Under the pieces are notes generated by a model, which saw nothing but the letters and a program-made list of their open reading frames with translations, made no database searches and was not told where the DNA came from. Shown here piece by piece: positions 3,013 to 16,800 of a stretch of DNA of 64,000 nt. A program made the translations under genes and the position numbers. How positions within the stretch are numbered: the stretch's first letter is position 1; the number at the start of each line of letters is the position of its first letter. This DNA is from Trichodelitschia bisporula (lineage: Eukaryota): positions 622,364 through 686,363 of the forward strand of contig ML996696.1 of the NCBI GenBank assembly GCA_010356995.1, in the 5' to 3' direction.

Positions 3013-4888
3013 TTACTTCTTCCCCCACGTAACCCCACATGCCGTCGTCGAGCCCACAACATCCACCTCCTGCGTCGTGGTGTAGATGTACACCTCGTAG
3101 ATGGTGCTCGCACCCCACGTCGTCGGCTCGTTGTCGTCGCCGATGTACACCGTGACCACACCGTCCGGCGCCTCGGTGATGGTGCTGGTATACGTGGCTT
3201 CCGTGACGATGCTGCTGTGCTCCGTTGTCGGGACGGCAGAGCAGCCCGGCTGGAGGGCTTGTTAGCAAGATGCCAAGGAATGACTGAGGGGCATGCTTAC
3301 GCGGGGCAGCGGAATCTCCGGCGCATTGATGATGACGGGCCCAAGAGCGGGCAGATCCCACGTCGGGATCGGAACGTAGCTCGTGACGGTGCGGTACCAG
3401 TCGCCGCCGGGATACGCGCCACCGCCCCAGGCCGGGCCGCCAACCACAGTCTACACACATTAGCCCCTGTCATAACATCCGCATCCCATAAGACTCACGG
3501 TGACACGCGGAGGCGGGCCCCTCCACCCACCATCCCGCCCCCAGTTCCCCCAATTCCCGCCCCAGTTCCCACCATTCCCGCCCCAGTTCCCGCCATTCTG
3601 CCCATGGTTCGGGTTCCCCGGACGATTGTCCCAGTTTCCACCGTTCCAGTTCCCGCCACCAGGACGCGGACCAGGGCCGTCGTGGTTCCCTCCACGCGGT
3701 CCCTCGCCCCCCTTCCACCCCCCGCCCGGATTGCCCTGCCCGGGCCTAGGCCCATTGTTCCCAGGGAAATTGGGCGGCGATTGTCCGTTCCCGGGCCTAG
3801 GCCCATTGTTCCCAGGGAAATTGGGCGGCGATTGTCCGTTCCCGGGCCGGGGCCCATTGTTCCCAGGGTTGCCCTGCCCTGGCCTCGGCCCGTTGTTGCC
3901 GGGGAAGTTCGGCTGGCCGCCGCCGGGCTTCGGTCCATTGTTGCCCTGGCCGGGCCTCGGCTGGTTGTTTCCGGGGAAGCTAGGCGCGCCGCCACCGGGT
4001 TTCGGCCCGTTGCCCCCACCTTGGGGGTGTTGGGGCTGCTGCTGGCCCCCGCCCGGACGCGGACCCTGCTGACCGCCGCCGGGCTTGGGGCCTTGTTGAC
4101 CGCCGCCGGGGCGCGGGCCTTGTTGGCCGCCGCCGGGACGGGGGCCTTGTTGACCGCCCTGGGAATGTTAGCTTAGCACAGGAGGGTATGCTGGCGCGGC
4201 GAGAGGAAAGCATCGAAGGGTCCGCCACACGCCGCCGGGCCTCGGCCACCACCACCGCCCTTTAGCCCTCCACCACCACGCGATGCACTCACGCCTTGAG
4301 GCGGGCGCGGCCCCCCGCCACCACCTGGGCCGCCGCCAAACTTCGGCCCCCCACCGCCTCCGCCACCGGGTCTGGGTCCTCCTCCGCCTGGGCCGCCGCC
4401 GCCGGGTCTTGGGCCCCCACCGCCGCCTCCGGGGGGTTTCTGGGGGATTGGGTTAGGGGTTTGTGCTGGTGCTGGGATGTGGGAGGAGAGGGAGTCGGGT
4501 GTGGGCTGGGTTTGTGCTTACCCCGCCGCCGCCGGGTCGGCCGCCCGGGCCGCCGCCGTGGTTCTTGCGGGGTGTTAGGGAGGGTGCTGGTGCTGGTGCT
4601 TGGGTGGGAGGGAGTTGGGTTGAGCTGGGATGGGCTGGATTGTGCTTACCCCACCGCCTCCGGGTCGGCCGCCGCCGCCACCGTGGTTCTTGTGGGGTGT
4701 CAGAGGGCATGTGCTTGGAGAGAGGGGGGGGGAGAGGGTGAGCTTACACCACCGCCGTTCTTTTGGGCGAGGATGGTTGTGCTGTGGATGGTTAGCTGTG
4801 TTGGGGACTTTCTCTTGGAGATGGCGTACCTGAACAGGAACAGCAGCATCATAAGACGCGTGAGCGTCAGCGTCATTTTGGTCGGCAT
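3013..4888 (-). CDS. Secreted Gly/Pro/Asn/Gln-rich repetitive protein (~455 aa, 8 exons) with a Thr/Val-rich C-terminal domain containing 2 Cys
   Basis: Exons 4888-4830, 4781-4748, 4688-4650, 4563-4522, 4439-4293, 4158-3499, 3450-3301, 3249-3013 splice in frame to TAA. Signal-peptide-like MTLTLTRLMMLLFLFSTTILA-QK; repeats GGQQGPRPG, PGNNGPRPG and GGNWG. Each intron has a GT donor and CTRAY branch point. Confidence 0.85.
3739..3867. repeat. 51-bp coding tandem repeat (~2.5 copies)
   Basis: cccgggcctaggcccattgttcccagggaaattgggcggcgattgtccgtt starts at 3739 and 3790, with a partial third copy at 3841. Encodes NGQSPPNFPGNNGPRPG on the minus strand. Confidence 0.95.
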
Positions 4889-7211
4889 ATTTTCAATCGA
4901 ACTGCTGGTCGCGATGTAAAGGAAAGTAAAAGGTCGGCTGACGGATCAAGAAGAGCGAGTTGGTCGACTCCTTAGTGGCAAGAGAAAGGAATGTACGAGC
5001 TTACAAGAGTGAACCCCGTTCCTCGGACGCGGGGGGGCCCGCCAGCTTAAGAACCCGTCCGCATTGGCCGCGAGATGCAAAAGACGCAGACCCCCCTCTT
5101 CCCAGCAGCCACATCACGAACCCGGTTTTTGGGCCTCCGCACCCACATGCGCAGTAGATTGCCAGTGTCAGGACACCGAAGTGCCCTCGTCGGCCATATC
5201 GCGCATAGTGGCACACGGACCGCCGCAGCCAATGGCGCAGGCCGCGCATATTGATGCGCGCACTCGGCACCGCTTGTGCACAATGAGCTCCCGGATTAAG
5301 GGCGAACGCGCCTGTCAAGCACCTGGTGACATAGATTATAGTGGCGTCAGGAGAGGGCAGTGGGAGTGCGTTGCCCGTGGCAAGGTGTGGGACAATGCGC
5401 GTTCCTGCGACGCCTCCGCGGGGGACCTGCAGCGGCGACACATAGTGAGCGCAATTAAGGCCGGACAATGAGAGCAGGACCGGCGACCAAGTGGTGTACC
5501 TGCGCAAGCGGCGATTGGTGCCTAACACTCGCGATTACGGCCGCGGCGTGGGCAGATTGCTTCACGGCCACTGCGGCTTGGCTCGGCCACGGTCGGCTTT
5601 CACACTGAGGACTTACATCCGTCGGGTAGAGCAGATCGTCGACGTGGGCATATGAGGTGTGTGCCCGGGTGATCCACGTTGGCAGTAAGCTTCGCCTGCC
5701 GTATCTTGCACGGGCGCACGTTGAGCGCTCCAGATGACGATGGCTAAAGCCGCCGGCCGGAAGGGTCACCCGCGAGCGGGAATACCGATTGGCATCGCAA
5801 CCTTTGGGCTTCGGTAATTGGGGTAAATTTTCCCAAAGGCAGTCGGCAGTCGTAATGTGCGCAGCCGGACGCAAGTGTTAAGTGAAAGACGCGCGGTCTG
5901 TAATGGATTGAGATTGCCAAGGGTGGCCTGCTCTATATATCAGAAGCTTAGCGAGGGCTCGAGATCAGATGAGGGGGATTATTTTGGGAAAGATAACCCG
6001 CGATCTTGGCTTGGCCCTGCAGCGGGCAGATCGGTAACAATTGCATCATGAAGGCGAAAGCTTGCGCAAAGCTGAAAATAGAGTCGAATGATGGTGTTCG
6101 TACTCGGAATGTTGCGCCGAAGGGGATGACGACAAAGTGGTGAAACATCACATATGTCGCAACTCGCAGATCGCAAATCTCGGGACCATGCACAGACTGA
6201 GCCAGGGCTCGACGTGGGGAAACATCGCCATCACAACCTTTTAGCACATAACATCCATGCCGCAGCTTCATCACCGTGTGGTTGACCGTCATCAGGCGGC
6301 AGATGGCGGGGTACGACTTTTCTCTGAGATCCTCGGATTAGCTCATATCTTCGACCATCGCGACAGGCTCATTTCCACTCACGGCAGACATTGGACTGTA
6401 AGGCCAGGCTAACAACACAAGTTAACAGGTTTTTTGAGACTCGGTCTTCACCCAGGCCAAGCCGTCGATAGTGGTGCCTCTCCACCGAGAATCTGTGACC
6501 CCGCTCCCGTCATATTGCTAGCTATATATAGCGGGCACGCAGGCTCATAACAGTGCAGGGGAGATCGCACCACGGCAGCTTCGGCCATGAACAGCTCCAA
6601 GCCTCGGATCTATGCCGTAAAGTCGATAAGATAGATAGTTCCGCCAGGCCCGTTCCTTCGTCTTCGGCAGCTGATGTTCGACGTCTGGAGGGAGATCCGT
6701 CGCTTGTCCGACCTCATGCTTAGCGTTCAGGCACAAAGGCACTAAGGCAAGCAGGCCAACGTCGTGAGCTCGACTCACATGCATACCATCCCTATCCTCG
6801 GCTAGTACATAGAGGGGCTCAGCAAAGAGATAAAGAGATAAAGAGTACATCCGTACTCCGTAGTCCCAGAAGCAAGGTGTGCGGTGAGCAAAACCCAGTT
6901 CTATGGGAACCGAAAAGGCAGTAAGCATGCCCGCTGCATGCCCAACGCACAGCAAACCAATCAAGAAAAGGTTTTATCCAATCACCAACAACGCCGCAAA
7001 ACCCCCCTGCTCACTCGCTCGCCCGAGCCACTCCTAGCGCCGCAAAGCCACTTGTGGCTGCATCAACCCTAGCCACCACAGCCACACAGTCACCACAACT
7101 CTCAAAAGGTCCGCAACCCGCACACGCCCTGAACTCCCCACCCATCCCCTCCCAGCCCAAAAAAGTCACCATACACTCCCAAACGCCATGTACGGTTCTC
7201 AAGACTGCACC

Positions 7212-8118
7212 TTATCCCCTTCGTCCGCTTGCGCCATTGTAAGGCCACCAACGCTGCAGAAACGCCAGTAGATCATTTTCCCCTTCAAGCACCTCCTCCA
7301 GCCGTTCGCGGCCGCGTGCCGCTCCAGTGGGCACTGAAAGGAGGCTCATGCTGATGCGCACGACGTCACGCACTGAGCCGGGTCGGTCGGAAAAGCGCTC
7401 CTATGGTTCGTTAGCCGTGTCCAGTCACAAGCGAACTGATATCGACATCTCGGAGCGACCGAGGGGCAGTCATTGAGATGCAAGGCTAACCGCAACGTCA
7501 TAGCATGCTCCATCGGGGAATTGGTGATGGGCGCTATGCGTTGCTCGATTTGCCCGGTGCGGGGGGCTGAGGTGTATTGGAAGGTACGTACCTCGACGCG
7601 CTGCATCCACTCCTGCACTTCGGCCATTGTCGGCCTTGCGTGTGGACTCGAGCTTTCGCCCTTGCCCACCGTTTCAATCGCTTCCGAATTTACGCCAGGC
7701 ATACTCGTTGGCAAGCCCGTTAGCGCACAGAGATACCCCCTCGCGGCGGCTCGCTGGGCAACCCCGTTTAGCGGCGCGGAGAGAAAGCATGCGAAGTGCT
7801 CGGTTAGTCGAGAGACCGGCGAGCAAAGGCGTGCGAGCCAAGTTTGAAAGTGCGCGAGGGGAATTTCGGCGTAGAGGAATTGAAGGAGGAGATTTTGGGG
7901 AGGTGGGGGGGAGGCGTAGCGCTGGGGTTTGGGTTAATGGGAGGTGAGGGGTGAGGGAGTGGAGAGCATACGGAAAGCTCATCGATCAGAGCAGCGAAGC
8001 GTGGCCAGTGGGGTGTATGGGGTTGAGAGAGGAAGACATCGATAGGGTTGAGACACTGTGATGTTAGGAGAAGGGGGCATGGTCGAAGGGGGAAGGGAAC
8101 TCTTACTTGGTGCGACAT
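7212..8118 (-). CDS. Small (204 aa) protein with two degenerate paired-amphipathic-helix (Sin3 PAH-like) domains
   Basis: CACC-ATG at 8118; exons 8118-8107, 8055-7972, 7921-7592, 7400-7212. Three phase-0 introns (GTAAGA..CTAAC..CAG, GTATGC..TTAAC..CAG, GTACGT..CTAAC..TAG) give an open frame to TAA. The C-terminal part EVQEWMQRVE|ERFSDRPGSVRDVVRI...RERLEEVLEGENDLLAFLQRWWP follows the PAH pattern. The gene model is better supported than the domain call. Confidence 0.75.
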
Positions 8119-10435
8119 GGTGGTGGTGGGTATGCGGGGACAAGAGAGTTATAAAGAGGACGACAGTGGTGGGAACAAAGCGAACAGCGGTATATGAACA
8201 GCAAGATATATTCCGACCTAAAGCATCGAGGCACAAGACGACAGATGGAACTTTGATTCCCGCAAACAGGAGCAGAGGGTGGGAAGTGAGGCGGATAAAT
8301 ACCCCGCGCACCGGAATACAAAAGCAGGTGGGTGATATCAGTTGAGGTGTATGGGGGCAGGCCCTGCGCCCTTTTAAAGCGCCCTACCCCCATCTGGGGC
8401 GCGCGGGTATACTTCATTCATTAGCTGCGGGTTAGGTTCGTCATCCATCTGCGAAAAGTAAGCCTTGTGCCCCAAAGTACAGAGCGCCCGGATCGCCCGG
8501 GGCCCCTGCTAAAGTGACTCCGACCCCGGGTTTTGGCATGGGTACAGTATTTTTGAACTTTGGGTATGCCGGGGTCGTGATGCTCCCATTGGCGCATGTC
8601 ACCCCCTTCGGTACAGTGCATCAGCTCGGGTGGTGCTCTGACCCCATCCGGTTAGCTTCCGTTGGTTTTCAGCGTATGAAAGACGGAATGCCCTCAGACG
8701 GTGGTGTAAACCCCACGCGACAGGGGGCCCGATGCATGTTCGTCTAGTTGCATATTGCGACGGAGTTGACAACACCTCCTGGTTTTCGGCTTTGGCGTAT
8801 TTACCAACGCGGGGTTGAGCAGATGAGCACCTCCTGCATCTCCATCCTGGTCTCGGGGCAAGAGAAGACTGAGGCCCAATATGCCCCGCGCGCATGGTTC
8901 AGTGCCTTTTCGCGCGCGCAATGCCGATAAAGTGATGCGCCACTCTTGGACCTGTGTTTCAGCCTCGTCCTCAGAGGATGCGTGTGCAAATTTTTCGAAA
9001 TTTGCGAGGAAGGCTGATAGGATGAGTTCTTGATCTGCACGGCTCTTCAAGACTGCAGGCTCGGGAAGCAGTACCTGAAACACTACTGGATACGAGAAGA
9101 CCGGTTACTGTACTGCGCGCACAATGCGGACTCTACAAGAGCATGTACAGCGGGAAAGATGCATTAAGCAAGGGTGCATCATCTCATCGAATCACCGACC
9201 CCCGTCGCCCTCATCCGCTGGCACGAGGGGTAAGGTGACGGGGGTAGTCAGTGAGGTACGCTAGGCTACAACAGGTTAGTCTAGGCAGCACAGCAGGGTG
9301 TGAGCCCTGCCCGGCCCGTCACCGGTTTCTCCTCACCTAACCCACACGCTATTCGAAAACGTGACGGGACTGCCTGTGGCGGTGACATGGTCTGCTGTGG
9401 CGGTGCGGCTTACTGAGCGGGAGGATACGGAGATGCATGTGCTGCGGCGGCGGCCTGATGCACGTGCCATTGTGAGCAAGCGGTGCAGGAGAGGATTGGA
9501 CGAGAAGATATTCATGGCTGCGTGGATCGTGCCATGTATGCTGTTCCCGTGCGGGGTGGAGGGGTTGGGGGACTCGCCCGTCAGGCGTTTTCGAGCGAGT
9601 TTTCAGCTGCGACCCGCTGGCACGTGTTTTTCCTATTGAATGCTCTCGAATCAGCTTCTGATAAATAAATAGAGTGCTGACAGAATGTCAACTTAATGTT
9701 CAACCGTTTGCATTTGCCACTGTTGATGGAGGCGTACGATGGTCATGTTCGTTGTATGCTGGCAGAGCCGAATTTGGTTGGGGCTCAGGCTGCATGTCAA
9801 CTTCCATCTTTTGGGGAAAGCGATCGACTTGTGACTGAGTATTGAACTTATGCATCCAAATCAAGCTCAGACTAGCGCTTTGCAATGTAGTTGGCGGGTC
9901 GTAGGGTTGCGATGGGCAGAATTCCTCACTGAAGGTCTCAATTCCGCCGTGACGTTGATGAAGTCCCATGGTTATCGGACATGTCCGAGAAGCGATAAAT
10001 GTGCAAGCCGCAGCATTATCGCTTATCGCGGTTCAGAAAAAAAGTCGAGGACTGATCACGGAGACTGCCGCCTCGTGGAAATTCTGGAATCAGCTTGGCA
10101 AGGGAGAGGTCGTGCGAGCCTCCGAAAGTTCAAGATGGACAGAGCGATGGAGAGCGGCGGTCGAACTCGTGCCAAGCGCAGGTACCAGGTACCGGTATGG
10201 CACAACCCGCCCGCCAATCAGCGATCGAGCGAGGTATCCCAGCCAACCGATGTGCAAGGGTTCCTACAAACACTTGAGCGACCGTCATTGTTACAATCCA
10301 TAATCATTCTGCTCTGCATCTTCACCATCTTCCCAAATCACTTTTATTCGCATCGCTGCCAACTTACGTTGTCGCACTGTTATTGCTGATTCGGTACCAT
10401 TGTTGTGTATGGTTTTCATCCACTAGAGAATCATC

Positions 10436-13400
10436 ATGGCGCGCGTCAACAAGGCCGCTGGCGAGGGTCTTGATTTCGCTGCGCTTTTGGCCCTGAGACG
10501 TCGTAAACGGGCAGAAGCCGAGAAGCAAGCTGGCGCTGATACCAAATCGCAAGCTCACGCGAGTCTGATGCGCAATCCGGACGCCGCGATTCACCTCCAA
10601 GATCTGACCACGAACAAAAAGACACCGGCCCGGGATACGAAGGACCAGAAGCCCGATCAAACAGCAAAGCACAGAAAGACTCTTCGCGATACCCAGCCAG
10701 CCGATCCGACCACCGCTCGGAAGCAGCGTGCATTGAAGCCTCTGACCGACGACTTGAAGAACAAGCCCCTCCCCCCGATTGTCAAAGATGAAGACAGGGA
10801 ACTTAGCCGTGCTGAGCGGAAAAAGGGTGTCGCGCGTCCTATTCCGAAGTCGCATGTCAAAGCGCGCGCTGAGAAAGATGATGAGGATACCCCCGTGCTC
10901 TATCCGGACGAGGACGACAGTCTTGCCATCATCCGCTACTGGGCCAAACCTCCTTCTCCGCAGCAGCGCGCCACGGTGGTACAGCCCAAGCTTAAGCCGG
11001 AAGATACAGCTGTTCCGCCTCCTGTGTTTGTTGAACAAGTGAAGTCGAGTATCAACCCCGGCAAGAAACCCCTTCCAGATCCGAGCAAAGCACCTCCCTT
11101 CAAGAAGGCGGCGAAAACTCGACCGAAGCCCCGCGGCAAGACGAACAATGGTTCGGGTGCGAACTGGACTGCTGATCCTGGTGACGATCCGTTCAAACCG
11201 CCGTTCGACTTTTCTGATGCCCCACCGCTTAAGTCGACTAGCCGAGCTAAACGCCAGTTTTACGGCCTCGAGGAGCGTTCGACCAAAATTTCGATGGACT
11301 CATGGGTGACTGTCGCTGGAGATGCTGAGAGTTTGCCTGCTCTTCCCCCATGCCAGATCGATGTACTCGCGAGTTCAGCGGCTACTTTCCAGTTTGCCGA
11401 CGATGAACCTCTGATTGAGAGCCAAGCGTCCCTGAATGACGGATGGGCGGACAATGGCTTTTTCTTCAATGCTGGTCAGACTATGGAAGTCAGTGACGAG
11501 GAAGACCCATGGCTTGACTCGGATAGCAAGGGGCGATCAGATATGTCCAGCGGTGTCAACACTTCGAACAAGCCGTCACCGCGGGATGAAATCATGTTGG
11601 ACACGGGAAGGCAGATGGCTCAGGCCTACCAGCTCGGGCACGGCGAGGGCCACATGCTAAGCAACCAGAACCGGTTCTCTGATGAGCAGCGCGGAATGGC
11701 CAAAGACGTTGGTAACAAAGCGTCCAACCTCGGCCGCGTTACGGATCTGCAGATGGGCAGTACTCCCATCGACCGTGCTGCTACGTCTCCTGCTCTTCTG
11801 GGCTCGGGTGCTACGAAGATGCCCGATCTTCTCAGTGAGAGTGCTGCGAAGAAAAAGATCAATGCCCTTTACGGAGATGGATCTTCCCAATCGACTGTCA
11901 AGTACGAGTTCTCAAAGGAAGAGCCGCCCATCCTCCTCTCGGATCGATACAAGAAGAAGACGGCCAATATGTTCGACATGAGTTCCTCTCGCTCGTCACT
12001 GTACTGCGAGTACTCGGATTTGGAGGGTCCTCAAACTGCGAAGAAGGTTTCTGTTGAGATGAAGTCTTCATTTGCCCACGGTCAATACGAATATAGTGAC
12101 GACGAAGACGTGGAGCTTCCCGAGACCCCGACAAAGGCCCCCCGCAGCAAGGACACCATTAAGGAGAATGACCGGGCTCCCCGTGTCAGTCGAAAGACCA
12201 AAACCCACCTTGCTTCTCACTACGAGAAGCTGCGAAATGATTCGAGTCCCTGGGGTGACGGGGAACATGCGAAACCGAGCACCCTGCGCACTGTCTCTTA
12301 CGCTGAAAGCTACGAGAGTGAGGTCATTACGCCGTCCGCGGGAAATGTCCTTGAGCAACTCATTGACCGAGACACAAAGGAGATTGAGCGCAAGGAGGAG
12401 GAGTCTCGGCAAGCTGCTCGCCAAAGCTGGGAGCAAGAACACGCTGCTTTCTTGACCTAGTATGTCCCCTTCTCCCTATAAAAAACTTTGCTAACCTCCC
12501 AGCGATCCGCGTGTATCTCCAATTCGTCTTGATCCGCGGACATCTTCTTCCCGTCTCACTCCGCACGCATCTTCCATTCAGCTTGATCCGCACGCATCTT
12601 CCATCCAGCTTGATCCGCATGAGTCTCCGATTCGCTTCGAGCGCCCCCAAGCCCCGACTCCTTGTGGTAGCCCGAGCAAGGGAAAGCTGAAGTCTCCCAC
12701 AAAGGAGACGCCACCTCGCCAGCAGATTCCTGACCTCACGAGCGACGAGTACTGGCAGCAGCTCCAGGAGATCACCTTCGAGAAGACCCCCAAGATCAAG
12801 TCTATCATGGACGATGATGCTATCAACTCGCCGCGGCGGGGTTTGATCCGCCGCACCTGGGATGGATGCAAGAACGACATTGCGGTCGCCTTCCTGTATG
12901 AGATCGACGAGGCCATGACGGGTGGCGAAGTTGGGCGTGCCACAGAGGACACGGGCGGTGTCCGCATCGTGTGGACCAACAAACTGTCCACCACCGCTGG
13001 TCGTGCGAGTTGGCGGGTCGAGCGCGTGGTTATTAACGGCCAGAGGGAGGAGCGTAAGCATTGGGCTACGATTGAGTTGGCTGAGAAAGTGGTCGATAGC
13101 GAGGAACGCTTGATCAACGTGATTGCACATGAGTACTGTCACTTAGCGACTTACATTGTGTCCGGGGTTCGGGATCGGCCGCATGGGAAGGAGTTCCGCG
13201 AGTGGTGAGTTAATTGTAGCGGTTGGTACTTGGGGCAATGCTAACAATTATAGGGGCAAGCAAGCGACTAAGCTGTACCACGATCGCGGTGTGGTCGTTA
13301 CGACGAAGCATACCTATGACATCAAGTACAAGTACATTTGGCGCTGCACCGGGTGCACCCTGCACATCCAACGCCATTCCAAGTCGATCAAACCAGCTAC

Positions 13401-13830
13401 ACAGTTGTGTGGTATCTGCCAGGGTAGACTCGAGCAGATCAAGCCTGCGCCGCGTGTGCGCGCCGGCGAAGACGTGGACATGGGCCCGCCACCGCAGCTC
13501 AATGCGTACGCTTCCTTCGTCAAGGAAAACTACCAGCTCGCCCGTGAACTGAGTCCCCAGGGTGCGTTGCCCAAGACGATCATGGGCAACTTGGCTCGTA
13601 TGTATCGCGATCAGAAGGAGATGCGTGCGAAGATGTTTACCGAGCATGATGCTGCTAAGATGGCTGATGCGATGGCCAATCGCGCTGGCATGGAAAGTGA
13701 TGGTGAGGACGGCAAGGAAAACAAGCGGGCTGAGAACGAAGGTGATGACGGTGGTTACGAAAATGAGGTCGAGGTGGAGGGTGCAGAGTGCATCACGGAT
13801 GCGATGGGCCGCGTTGATCTGACTGAGTAG
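10436..13830 (+). CDS. GCNA/ACRC-like protein: long disordered N-terminus + SprT metalloprotease + C4 zinc finger + HMG-like box
   Basis: Introns 12460-12502 and 13205-13253 join the three ORF-track pieces. Motifs: IVWTNKLSTTAGRA, IELAEKVVD, HEYCH (HExxH), PHGKEF, HTYDIKYKYIWRCTGC...RHSKS...CGIC, and NAYASFVKENY...IMGNLARMY. Confidence 0.9.
12504..12638. repeat. Degenerate 27-bp coding repeat, 5 copies
   Basis: Units start at 12504, 12531, 12558, 12585 and 12612, encoding DPRVSPIRL, DPRTSSSRL, TPHASSIQL, DPHASSIQL and DPHESPIRF. Confidence 0.85.
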
Positions 13831-16800
13831 GCGTTTCACGGTATGAATCATGTCGAAGGCTATCCTTCGGAGGGCTGCTGGACTTAACACACGATGGGTT
13901 ACGCTCGTGGACGGATTTTTCTGAACTATCACGGTTTTCGGGAGTTCATCCATTAGCGTTGGAGTTCGTTGATCTTCGAGATACCCAGCATGAAGGCGTT
14001 GTACATGTTTAGTTCTAGCACTAGGTAGAATCAAGCATGCAGAGTGAATGTCTTTCGGCAGTGAGTGTCCGGAGTGAGAGTCGATGACCTTCTGACGCCT
14101 GCTACCTGGGGGCCACTTCAGATACCCGTCGCCCATCGTGAGACCAGCCTAAAACCCGTTCCATCACCATTGTCCCAATGCAGCAATGCTCAAAATGGCA
14201 ACCGCCGCTGCCAGAGCACGTTCTAGTGGGCCAGCCTCCGTTACACAACGTCGCTTGAATGTCACCCCCAACCCCCAACCTGCAAATCCCCTTTTCAAAA
14301 TACCACACCCCAAACGCACAAATCAAAGCCCTGCATCAGTCCAGTACCTGCAAATATCGCCCCTAGCAGCCCAGATCGACCCCCTGTCGCCGAGAACGGG
14401 CAAGGGCGGCTGCCACATCGTGAGTGAAGACGTAATCTCAATCGGAATTGCCGATGAAACACGGCGCCCGAGGGAGGGGGAGAGGTCGGACGATAGGGCT
14501 GCCAGGTTGACATGTGGCAGCTCGCGTGCGTGGGATTGGAATTGTCGATGTTGCACAGCGTGGCCCTGCGTCTGCGTTGCGAGGCTGAGCATGGGTTGGT
14601 GCGGAGGGGATGTGATTGGCTGGTCGGGGATGGGGTTGGGCGGGGGCGATTGGAGGGCTAATAGACCTGTGTTGGGGGGAGGGGCTTCTTATACGAGTGC
14701 ATTTTTGGGCGTTGGGAGTTGGGTTAGAGTTGTTAATGGTCGAAGAATGGCAGTATATGCATGGTCAGGAGGCTATGGTACACCGCTGCTCGGGAGATGC
14801 CGAGTTGTCACTTGCTGCTGCGTGCGGCGAGGGCGTGTTTCTGGAACGCAATACAATGCACGAAATCACTAGTTTCCCTTCTGCAGTGACCGGTTTGGAC
14901 TCTGCATTAGCACAACACATTTCCCCTCCTCAAACACCACCCACCAAGCATCGTCCACCAAGCCTTACTCTACCCCTCGCATGCCCATACATGCCGCAGA
15001 CACGGGGAATAGCGCCAACGCCATGTGTCCGCCAGACCGCCATGTCCAGCCCACACTTGAGCCTCGCCCACCAAACACCACACCAACGCCAACCCGATCT
15101 GGCCCCCTTGCCGACCCCCCGTGAACCCGTCCTAGGGCCGAGGGGCGATTTCCCAACCCGTACTCCACATGCCCCACAGCCAAAGCCGAGACCCACACCT
15201 GTGCGACCACGCGCACAACCCTATGTCTTTGTTTCCCCGGTTTGTTGTCTTTTCCCCTGGGCGCCCTTGATGCCGTCCCCGGAGATGTGATGCGCCTCCG
15301 GCCCTGCGCGATCCCGGGTCCGGGCATGCGTGGCGGACGTTGGACGGTAGAGGGGGTGGGTGTGAGGTTGGTATGGGTGAGTGCGGTGCGGAAGGCGGTG
15401 TATGGTTCTTTTACGAGGGTGGGTTTGATACACGTCGGTGTGAGTGCTGGAGTTGATGTTGCGGCTGGCTTCGGCACAGGGCAAGGCCGTGCTATGTTTG
15501 AAGACACTGCTCGGTCCCGGATTGTTGTCTGCCGACAGGCAACTCTCCCGAATGATCCGCAAGGAGTGTTCTTGATGGAAACGGGGGGGGGGTCATCCAG
15601 CGTCCTTCGACACGTTGAAGATGACGATCCCACGGGCAGTGTGGAGGAGTAGGCCAGTCGTCGTTGGTGTCCTTTAATTCCTCTTCCTTTTCCTTCAGAT
15701 CCAACATCGATGGAAGCGGCTCCTCTTGCGTCTATCTGAACGTATATAATTCTCTGTCCACATCAGCGACTGCTTGAAAGATCCCTCACATCGCCTTTTT
15801 TAAAGTCAATATCGCCGTTCGGGCAGGGGACGGGGATTTGACTGGAATCCATGCACAACAACAGCACCGATATGCCACCTGAAAGTTATTAGAAAAAGTC
15901 TCCGCAAAATACCTTCACCCTCCACAATACAGTCCATCGTCCGCGCGACACTCGCCTTCAGATGGTACGTACCCGCTGCCTACGGCTGAAAGCAGGGATG
16001 TCACACCATCATACAGCAGTAGTGCACGGTCTACAGGTGACCGATCAGCGAGCCCGTCTCACTGCAGTGCGGTCGAGGGAGCACAGAACCACCGGAGTAA
16101 TGGGCACCACTCAGCAACAGGTTAGGCGAACAACGGTGTGAAAGGTTATTTCGACTTCGGGCTATAACGGGCCCGATATAGGTCTGCGGTGGTGACATGC
16201 AAGCTCTGTGAATGCAAATATGAGGAGATGGGTGATATTGTCTAGTTCCCTGCATTCCGGTCAGACATGCTACGTAACAAGAAGTTCAATGCATTGAAGC
16301 GGATTGTGGTTCGACGATCGGATGGGCTTAGCCGAGTGTTAATCAGTCGGGTCGGCCAATTGGGCGGACCCGAATAAACTTTGGCATGGACAGAGTCTGA
16401 AACGGCCCGGTAACTAGCCAAACGGACCCGATCCCGAAGCGCACTTCCAGTTCAAATGGTAAAACCTGTATAAGCACCACTGCAACATTCTCATGGCGAG
16501 AGCTTGAGATGAGAAGCTCGCAGTGTGATCTCGCATAATGGCAACAGCAACCGGGCTCACAACAAGAATCTTGAGTTTGAAAGGGTGCACGACAGAAGGT
16601 AAAAGTATCAGCGGGTCTGAAGGATTCGGGGAGCGGAAAGACGAAGCTGGATGTAAAGAAGGGTTGGGTTTTCGCACCGCGGGAAATAAGGCAAGGCATG
16701 CAAGTTGAAGTTTCCGCACCAAGGTTGGCATCCATCTGATGGACGCGGTAATAGTAAGCGAAAGAGAGGTGCAGCAGAGAGAGAGTCGGTGATGTCGGGA

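Follow-up and report, generated by a model that had tools for sequence, protein, structure and literature searches.

Does the minus strand of this window, by which we mean the whole 64-kb stretch of DNA analysed, carry between 8118 and 7212 a gene that lists of open reading frames do not reveal, and would its product be built from two modules related to the paired amphipathic helix (PAH) domains of Sin3? The original prediction had answered yes to both parts and had proposed that the product might act as a Sin3 decoy or adaptor. The surroundings are ordinary fungal chromosomal DNA of 54-64% G+C, and the window carries housekeeping genes, among them those for ClpP, a SprT-like protease, a Cys/Met PLP enzyme, Nrap, DNA ligase I, RMI1, an AN1/ubiquitin protein, a synoviolin-like RING ligase, eIF3e, and Img2. 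No Sin3 gene was recognised among nine chosen ORFs below position 14,000 and all 100 ORFs of at least 140 aa above 14,000. At 3460-4517 on the minus strand, long low-complexity open frames rich in Gly, Pro, Gln, and Asn contain repeated short G/P/Q-rich units, and the frame at 3463-4167 had no Pfam match.

The minus-strand gene runs from 8118 to 7212, with a spliced frame of 204 codons from the ATG at 8118-8116 to the TAA at 7212-7214. Its CDS of 615 nt is divided into coding exons of 12, 84, 330, and 189 nt by introns 1, 2, and 3, each of which is in phase 0, and the spliced protein of 204 residues has a computed mass of 22.7 kDa and a computed pI of 6.6. This hidden four-exon frame, with its three phase-0 introns, good donors, and branch points, is present as it had been described, and the peptide strings that had been quoted for the two proposed units, unit 1 and unit 2, are found in the sequence as given. 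It was also right that no single ORF displays the 204-aa frame: the longest plain ORF, 7346-7933, covers exon 3 and then reads through into intron 3, and nothing else of the gene. The start codon has a good fungal start context, and an in-frame stop lies 10 codons upstream, the frame opening at 8148. The features of the locus are as follows; X1 and X2 are the two transcript runs, and P0003 to P0008 the six protein relatives, that are described below.

8107..8118, minus strand: coding exon 1, the ATG plus three codons; the transcript extends upstream, and the joint 8055/8107 is present in X1 and X2
8056..8106, minus strand: intron 1, 51 nt, phase 0, GTAAGA...CTAAC...CAG; its retention would keep the frame (ORF 7804-8148)
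7972..8055, minus strand: exon 2, 28 codons
8007-7972, minus strand: proposed helix 1 of unit 1, the last 12 codons of exon 2; aligns with helix 1 of P0004 and P0006
7922..7971, minus strand: intron 2, 50 nt, phase 0, GTATGC...TTAAC...CAG; not in relatives P0004 and P0006
7592..7921, minus strand: exon 3, 110 codons; core region conserved across the family
7778..8007, minus strand: unit 1, putative PAH-like helices 1-4, spanning intron 2; profile match to Pst2 150-206; helices taken from the AF2 model of P0004
7709..7762, minus strand: fifth helix with the GLP motif, conserved: Q, AA, Y, C, L, and GLP are identical in seven of seven sequences; corresponds to helix 91-105 in the P0004 model (block pLDDT 83-88)
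7631..7708, minus strand: variable linker, 16 residues longer than in P0003, P0004, and P0006
7592..7630, minus strand: proposed helix 1 of unit 2, kept up to the intron in P0003, P0004, and P0006
7401..7591, minus strand: intron 3, 191 nt, phase 0, GTACGT...GCTAAC...TAG
7212..7400, minus strand: exon 4, 62 codons plus TAA; its residues 1-53 (7400-7242) are proposed as helices 2-4 of unit 2

Transcript data were available from two public runs, X1 and X2, of one sample from one study, for which the label "RNA?" is a guess, and contigs of both runs were aligned with positions 5500-14000 of the window (8.5 kb). Read on the strand of the respective gene, each of the 11 joints found on this stretch is GT..AG, and two of them connect the ORFs of the plus-strand SprT-like gene in frame; the contigs were therefore taken as cDNA-like. 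The joints 8055/8107, 7921/7972, and 7400/7592 are each present in both runs and correspond exactly to the three predicted introns, so that 8056-8106, 7922-7971, and 7401-7591 are skipped in X1 as well as in X2. The four-exon gene model is confirmed, the gene being transcribed and spliced as predicted. The neighbouring SprT-like protease gene (10427-13830, plus strand) consists of a 677-codon N-terminal ORF lacking a Pfam domain, followed by SprT-like and Zn-ribbon domains, and its introns at 12460-12502 and 13204-13252 are seen in both runs, where they link its three ORFs.

The minus-strand contigs overrun the CDS by about 2 kb upstream and about 1.7 kb downstream, reaching from about 10300 to 5500 and containing six more introns. 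In the upstream stretch (8119-10300, minus strand) these introns lie at 9014-9074, 9266-9336, and 9633-9737, and one X1 contig leads from exon 3 across 8107-9013 and through the further upstream introns, linking these to exons 2 and 3 of the gene. After splicing, this stretch contained no convincing ORF, and its ORF 8697-9104 had no Pfam match; a long leader with introns, a non-coding RNA upstream of the gene, and a further orphan gene are all conceivable. In the downstream stretch (5500-7211, minus strand) the introns lie at 6703-6778, 6324-6382, and 5933-6103, of which X2 alone shows the third, and the ORFs found there, for example 6548-6973 and 5951-6337, had no Pfam match; this part may belong to a long spliced trailer or else to a transcript of its own downstream of the gene. 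Either one long mRNA or overlapping neighbours would give such contigs.

A transcript of this kind raises the question of whether the frame is translated at all, or whether it is a fortuitous frame in a long multi-intron non-coding or read-through transcript. Nothing coding was recognised around the ORF on these contigs, and the length of the ORF is a weak argument when taken alone: when the 3,966-nt spliced stretch was shuffled 500 times with its dinucleotides preserved, 26 of the shuffles contained an ATG-initiated ORF of at least 204 codons (p ~0.05). Conservation, however, speaks strongly the other way. A phmmer search with exon 3 against 1.84 billion representative proteins gave seven matches at E <= 0.001, six of which (P0003-P0008) are true relatives with 36-61% identity and E values from 4.5e-8 to 3.7e-4; they align over the whole conserved core and share 14 invariant columns, mostly hydrophobic or Ala/Gly/Pro. 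When an HMM was built from these six relatives alone, the spliced window protein scored 72.8 bits against it. A slighter argument is that the G+C contents of the three codon positions of the frame (0.66/0.51/0.63) resemble those of the neighbouring genes, with flanks that are flat near 0.55, and the three introns, all in phase 0, and the start context also argue for translation. An untranslated frame is in our view highly improbable. Coding status follows from the six relatives, the score of the relatives-only HMM, and the coding-like G+C pattern, with conservation being decisive, and the gene is very probably a coding member of a rare unnamed family.

The six relatives are unnamed or "hypothetical" singletons, two from Logan and four from JGI/IMG, on contigs of 0.9-2.4 kb. 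The seventh match, P0009, a repeat protein of 1,813 aa, was dropped from the alignments; its match is a low-complexity one to the ALTGLP stretch. The search of the 1.84 billion representatives with exon 3 returned neither a self-hit nor a named relative, and within the reach of this library the gene therefore appears to be absent from public protein sets. No match was obtained in a word-based homologue search with exon 3 (107-342 aa), and no usable match in an ESM-Atlas search with the same exon. Within the 64-kb window, tblastn with the spliced protein detected no second copy (best other match, E 1.0). One metagenome contig obtained for P0006 (L002, 1-1375) was rejected: it is rich in AT and looks bacterial, and its 19 matching residues are a chance match, antisense to a 331-codon ORF. 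The other metagenome scan for the relatives' DNA found none.

The relatives also bear on the exon structure. P0003, P0004, and P0006 keep the helix that ends exon 3 and then read V, unrelated residues, and a stop; all three relatives that reach this point thus look as they would if a GT donor in the corresponding codon had been read through, which suggests that the position of intron 3 is conserved. Exon 4 may be conserved in the relatives as well. Neither of the two relatives covering the site of intron 2 (P0004 and P0006) has that intron. P0005, P0007, and P0008, which are closest to the window sequence in helices 4 and 5, all end a few residues after the invariant GLP, and these ends may mark an extra intron in their genomes.

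Whether the encoded protein is related to PAH domains was examined separately for the two units. No Pfam family of any kind matches exons 2-4. The PAH family PF02671, with a cut-off of 21.3 bits, was matched at E <= 10 by none of the three exons tested (exons 2-4, exon 1 having four codons) and by none of the six relatives, in searches whose HMMER filters drop most matches above about E 0.1; a PF02671 search of a viral locus and 14 control genomes gave no match anywhere. A profile of the family did give a marginal match to a Sin3 homologue. When the seven-sequence profile was compared with 177,635 distinct PDB sequences, the top match was to residues 150-206 of 8i02_A, "Paired amphipathic helix protein pst2", the S. 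pombe Sin3 homologue Pst2 (E 0.0031, domain 0.0088), and the only other match had an E value of 0.75. With the window's row removed from the profile, Pst2 was the sole PDB match at E <= 10 (E 0.011, domain 0.042). No other solved Sin3 PAH chain appeared at E <= 10 in these PDB profile searches.

Over about 57 aligned columns the family and Pst2 150-206 share the spacing of hydrophobic residues and close in an F..FL motif, whereas the family's conserved fifth helix and GLP motif have no counterpart in the aligned Pst2 stretch. Pst2 150-206 follows an earlier PAH-like stretch (58-99) and on that ground, and not from a stated boundary, probably corresponds to PAH2. The entry 8I02 shows the S. pombe SIN3S complex; each of the three Pst2 domains PAH1, PAH2, and PAH3 there grips a helix from Cph1 or Cph2, according to the available text of PMC10115800. 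We regard the support for unit 1 as marginal but specific, and on the strength of this profile comparison unit 1 is probably a remote relative of PAH domains. Unit 1 had been proposed as the weaker copy of the two, and the order is reversed here: with its profile match to Pst2 it has better statistical support than unit 2.

Unit 2 extends across intron 3 and was searched as exon 4 alone. In the ESM-Atlas, PF02671 is present in the first match and in all of the clusters listed, and one family or clan is common to the ten best matches that bear a family, with some clusters also carrying HHD_RTEL1. The top score of 0.81 lies under the trust line of 0.9, a third of shuffled proteins score in this range, and it serves as a lead only. 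A phmmer search of the PDB with exon 4 gave 12 chance-level sequences at E <= 10, with no Sin3 chain among them, and exon 4 found no relative in two word-based searches ("longer" and "near"). The PAH consensus that had been read into unit 2 is thus backed by the Atlas clusters but not by Pfam or by the PDB search, and the PAH support for this unit, which comes from language-model features, amounts to a lead only.

Structure models were built on two substitutes, namely the relative P0004 (AF2, seven-row alignment) and exon 4 alone. Both models are of modest confidence. For P0004 the mean pLDDT is 64 and rises to block means of 75-90 across residues 41-110; the model contains helices at 28-37, 44-54, 59-70, 74-85, and 91-105, that is, four short helices and a confident fifth that coincides with the invariant Q..AA..Y.C.L.GLP segment. 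A Foldseek search of the PDB with this model returned nothing at E <= 0.001, and a second pass over the Foldseek list brought no gain. Two Sin3 chains stood at ranks 28 and 30 of 48,161, both on model residues 27-86, in a list from which nothing stands out. We take the ranges of these two chains to be PAH3. The resolved core of SIN3B starts with PAH3, according to the available text of PMC10156912. Exon 4 alone was modelled with three helices (10-22, 24-40, and 44-51) at a mean pLDDT of 61, and its fold search gave no informative match. The fold searches neither favour nor contradict a PAH-type bundle, and the folds of units 1 and 2 are presumptive.

Amphipathic helices punctuated by F, L, and P are common, and the protein could be a real, translated, lineage-restricted helical protein whose PAH likeness reflects chance or convergence and which has no Sin3-type peptide binding. 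The missing Pfam PAH match, the single marginal PDB match, the fold searches in which nothing stood out, the Atlas score below its trust line, and the fifth helix and GLP motif that the aligned part of Pst2 lacks would all fit such a protein. What speaks against it is that two unrelated methods, applied to two parts of the protein, both land on a family that had been named in advance: the unit 1 profile ranked Pst2 first among 177,635 sequences, and the Atlas search with exon 4 leads in the same direction. Because two methods and two halves of the protein converge in this way, the PAH likeness exceeds what chance would lead one to expect, and we consider chance or convergence somewhat unlikely. 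Taken singly, neither the Pst2 match nor the Atlas result is strong, and both respond to the kind of pattern that had already been noticed in the original prediction. The twin-PAH reading accordingly stands in part, with the Pst2 profile match for unit 1 and the Atlas lead for exon 4 in its favour and the lack of PF02671 matches in the exons and the relatives against it; that the protein is a twin-PAH is a tentative assignment, to which we give slightly less than even odds.

The confident fifth helix of the P0004 model also invites the view that unit 1 belongs to another five-helix subgroup of the alpha-alpha-hubs, TAFH- or HHD-like, and not to PAH. HHD and ETO-TAFH are described with a fifth helix in the available text of PMC7948954, P0006 has a Pfam TAFH match (E 0.0043) that takes in 69 of the 90 profile positions, and HHD_RTEL1 occurs on some of the exon 4 Atlas clusters. 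The P0006 score of 17.4 bits, however, is below the cut-off of 27, and this is one relative of six, with no such match in the other five or in the window exons. The PDB profile searches retrieved no TAFH chain, and as far as the available text of PMC7948954 goes, TAFH is reported from animals only and PAH from most eukaryote clades. We judge a TAFH- or HHD-like identity very unlikely and retain a remote PAH kinship as the preferred reading of unit 1.

An internal duplication had been proposed as the origin of the two units, and we found no sequence trace of it. The relatives' HMM, run on the spliced protein, found unit 1 alone and left unit 2 unmatched. When the unit 1 columns were compared with unit 2 by hhalign, an 11-column, out-of-register match was obtained with a score of 14.2, which was reached by 2 of 200 shuffles. 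A comparison of the fuller family alignment with unit 2 was set aside, as it only re-found the shared helix. The argument from an intron at the same position in both units is weakened by the absence of intron 2 from P0004 and P0006. If units 1 and 2 are related, their kinship appears to have faded from the amino acid sequence.

The reading that we favour, a real gene encoding a PAH-like twin-module hub, is the best joint explanation of these results, with a probability of roughly 0.5. The gene product would be a 204-residue, all-helical protein of a rare unnamed family in a filamentous-type fungus. Unit 1 would form a four-helix PAH-like module of the alpha-alpha-hub type, a remote kin of Sin3 PAH, with an added fifth helix that ends in GLP; a variable linker would follow, and then unit 2 as a second, more divergent PAH-like module encoded across intron 3. 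The HDAC-interaction domain (HID) had been said to be absent, which is true of this 204-aa protein, in which no Pfam match occurs. Sin3 architecture comprises the HID and a conserved C-terminal region, according to the available text of PMC10115800, and both are missing here; the protein itself is therefore unable to recruit Rpd3. It is neither a Sin3 orthologue nor a Pfam-level PAH member.

By analogy with PAH and other alpha-alpha-hubs, such a protein would most likely act by binding short amphipathic helices of disordered regulators. As a stand-alone hub it could titrate these helices away from Sin3, as a decoy, or bridge two of them, as an adaptor. Binding of any kind, and any link to Sin3, would be extrapolated from these known hubs, and we consider the specific role of a Sin3 decoy or adaptor unlikely.

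A further possibility is that the twin-PAH carries its own pseudo-ligand, the invariant fifth helix folding back into the cleft of unit 1 and creating a switchable decoy that would uncouple repressor helices from Sin3-Rpd3. A precedent for a PAH pocket filled by its own chain is PAH3 of Pst1, described in the available text of PMC10115800. The core of the fifth helix, AA-x-x-aromatic, corresponds to the AAXX-phi part of the type I Sin3-PAH2 ligand motif, as that motif is given in the available text of PMC7948954, and the upstream hydrophobic positions do not fit. The fold-back is speculation, and we consider the switchable decoy improbable.

PAH modules occurring apart from a deacetylase-binding domain have parallels. 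The available text of PMC7948954, a review of alpha-alpha-hubs, describes many PAH proteins lacking a HID and places PAH in most eukaryote clades, and the short isoform of mouse Sin3b (Sin3b-202) contains PAH modules and does not bind HDAC, according to the available text of PMC4914931. The window protein would resemble Sin3b-202 and these PAH-only proteins in having PAH-like modules and no deacetylase-binding domain. Whereas those are Sin3-derived splice forms or clear Pfam-level PAH proteins, it is encoded by a separate, highly divergent gene, apparently fungal, that has no named relative. It would also be comparable to TAFH/NHR1 (PF07531) and to the RST, NCBD, and HHD hubs, which in the available text of PMC7948954 are small helical domains built around an alpha-alpha hairpin, which recognise short motifs within disordered regulators and in some cases have a fifth helix; the window protein differs from TAFH/NHR1 in that its family shows a sub-threshold match in one of six relatives and in that the same text reports TAFH from animals only. 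In the limited literature collection that was searched, no paper joined "microprotein", "Sin3", and "PAH", and none was relevant to a PAH protein in filamentous fungi.

Our findings provide an example of the small multi-exon genes that are skipped by ORF-based and homology-based annotation. Should the PAH reading fail, the gene would still be a confirmed member of an orphan family, of ordinary interest. If the PAH reading is true, the gene encodes a free-standing, highly diverged fungal relative of the peptide-docking module of Sin3 that is invisible to Pfam, and it would offer a natural tool for learning how contacts between repressors and Sin3 are competed or bridged.
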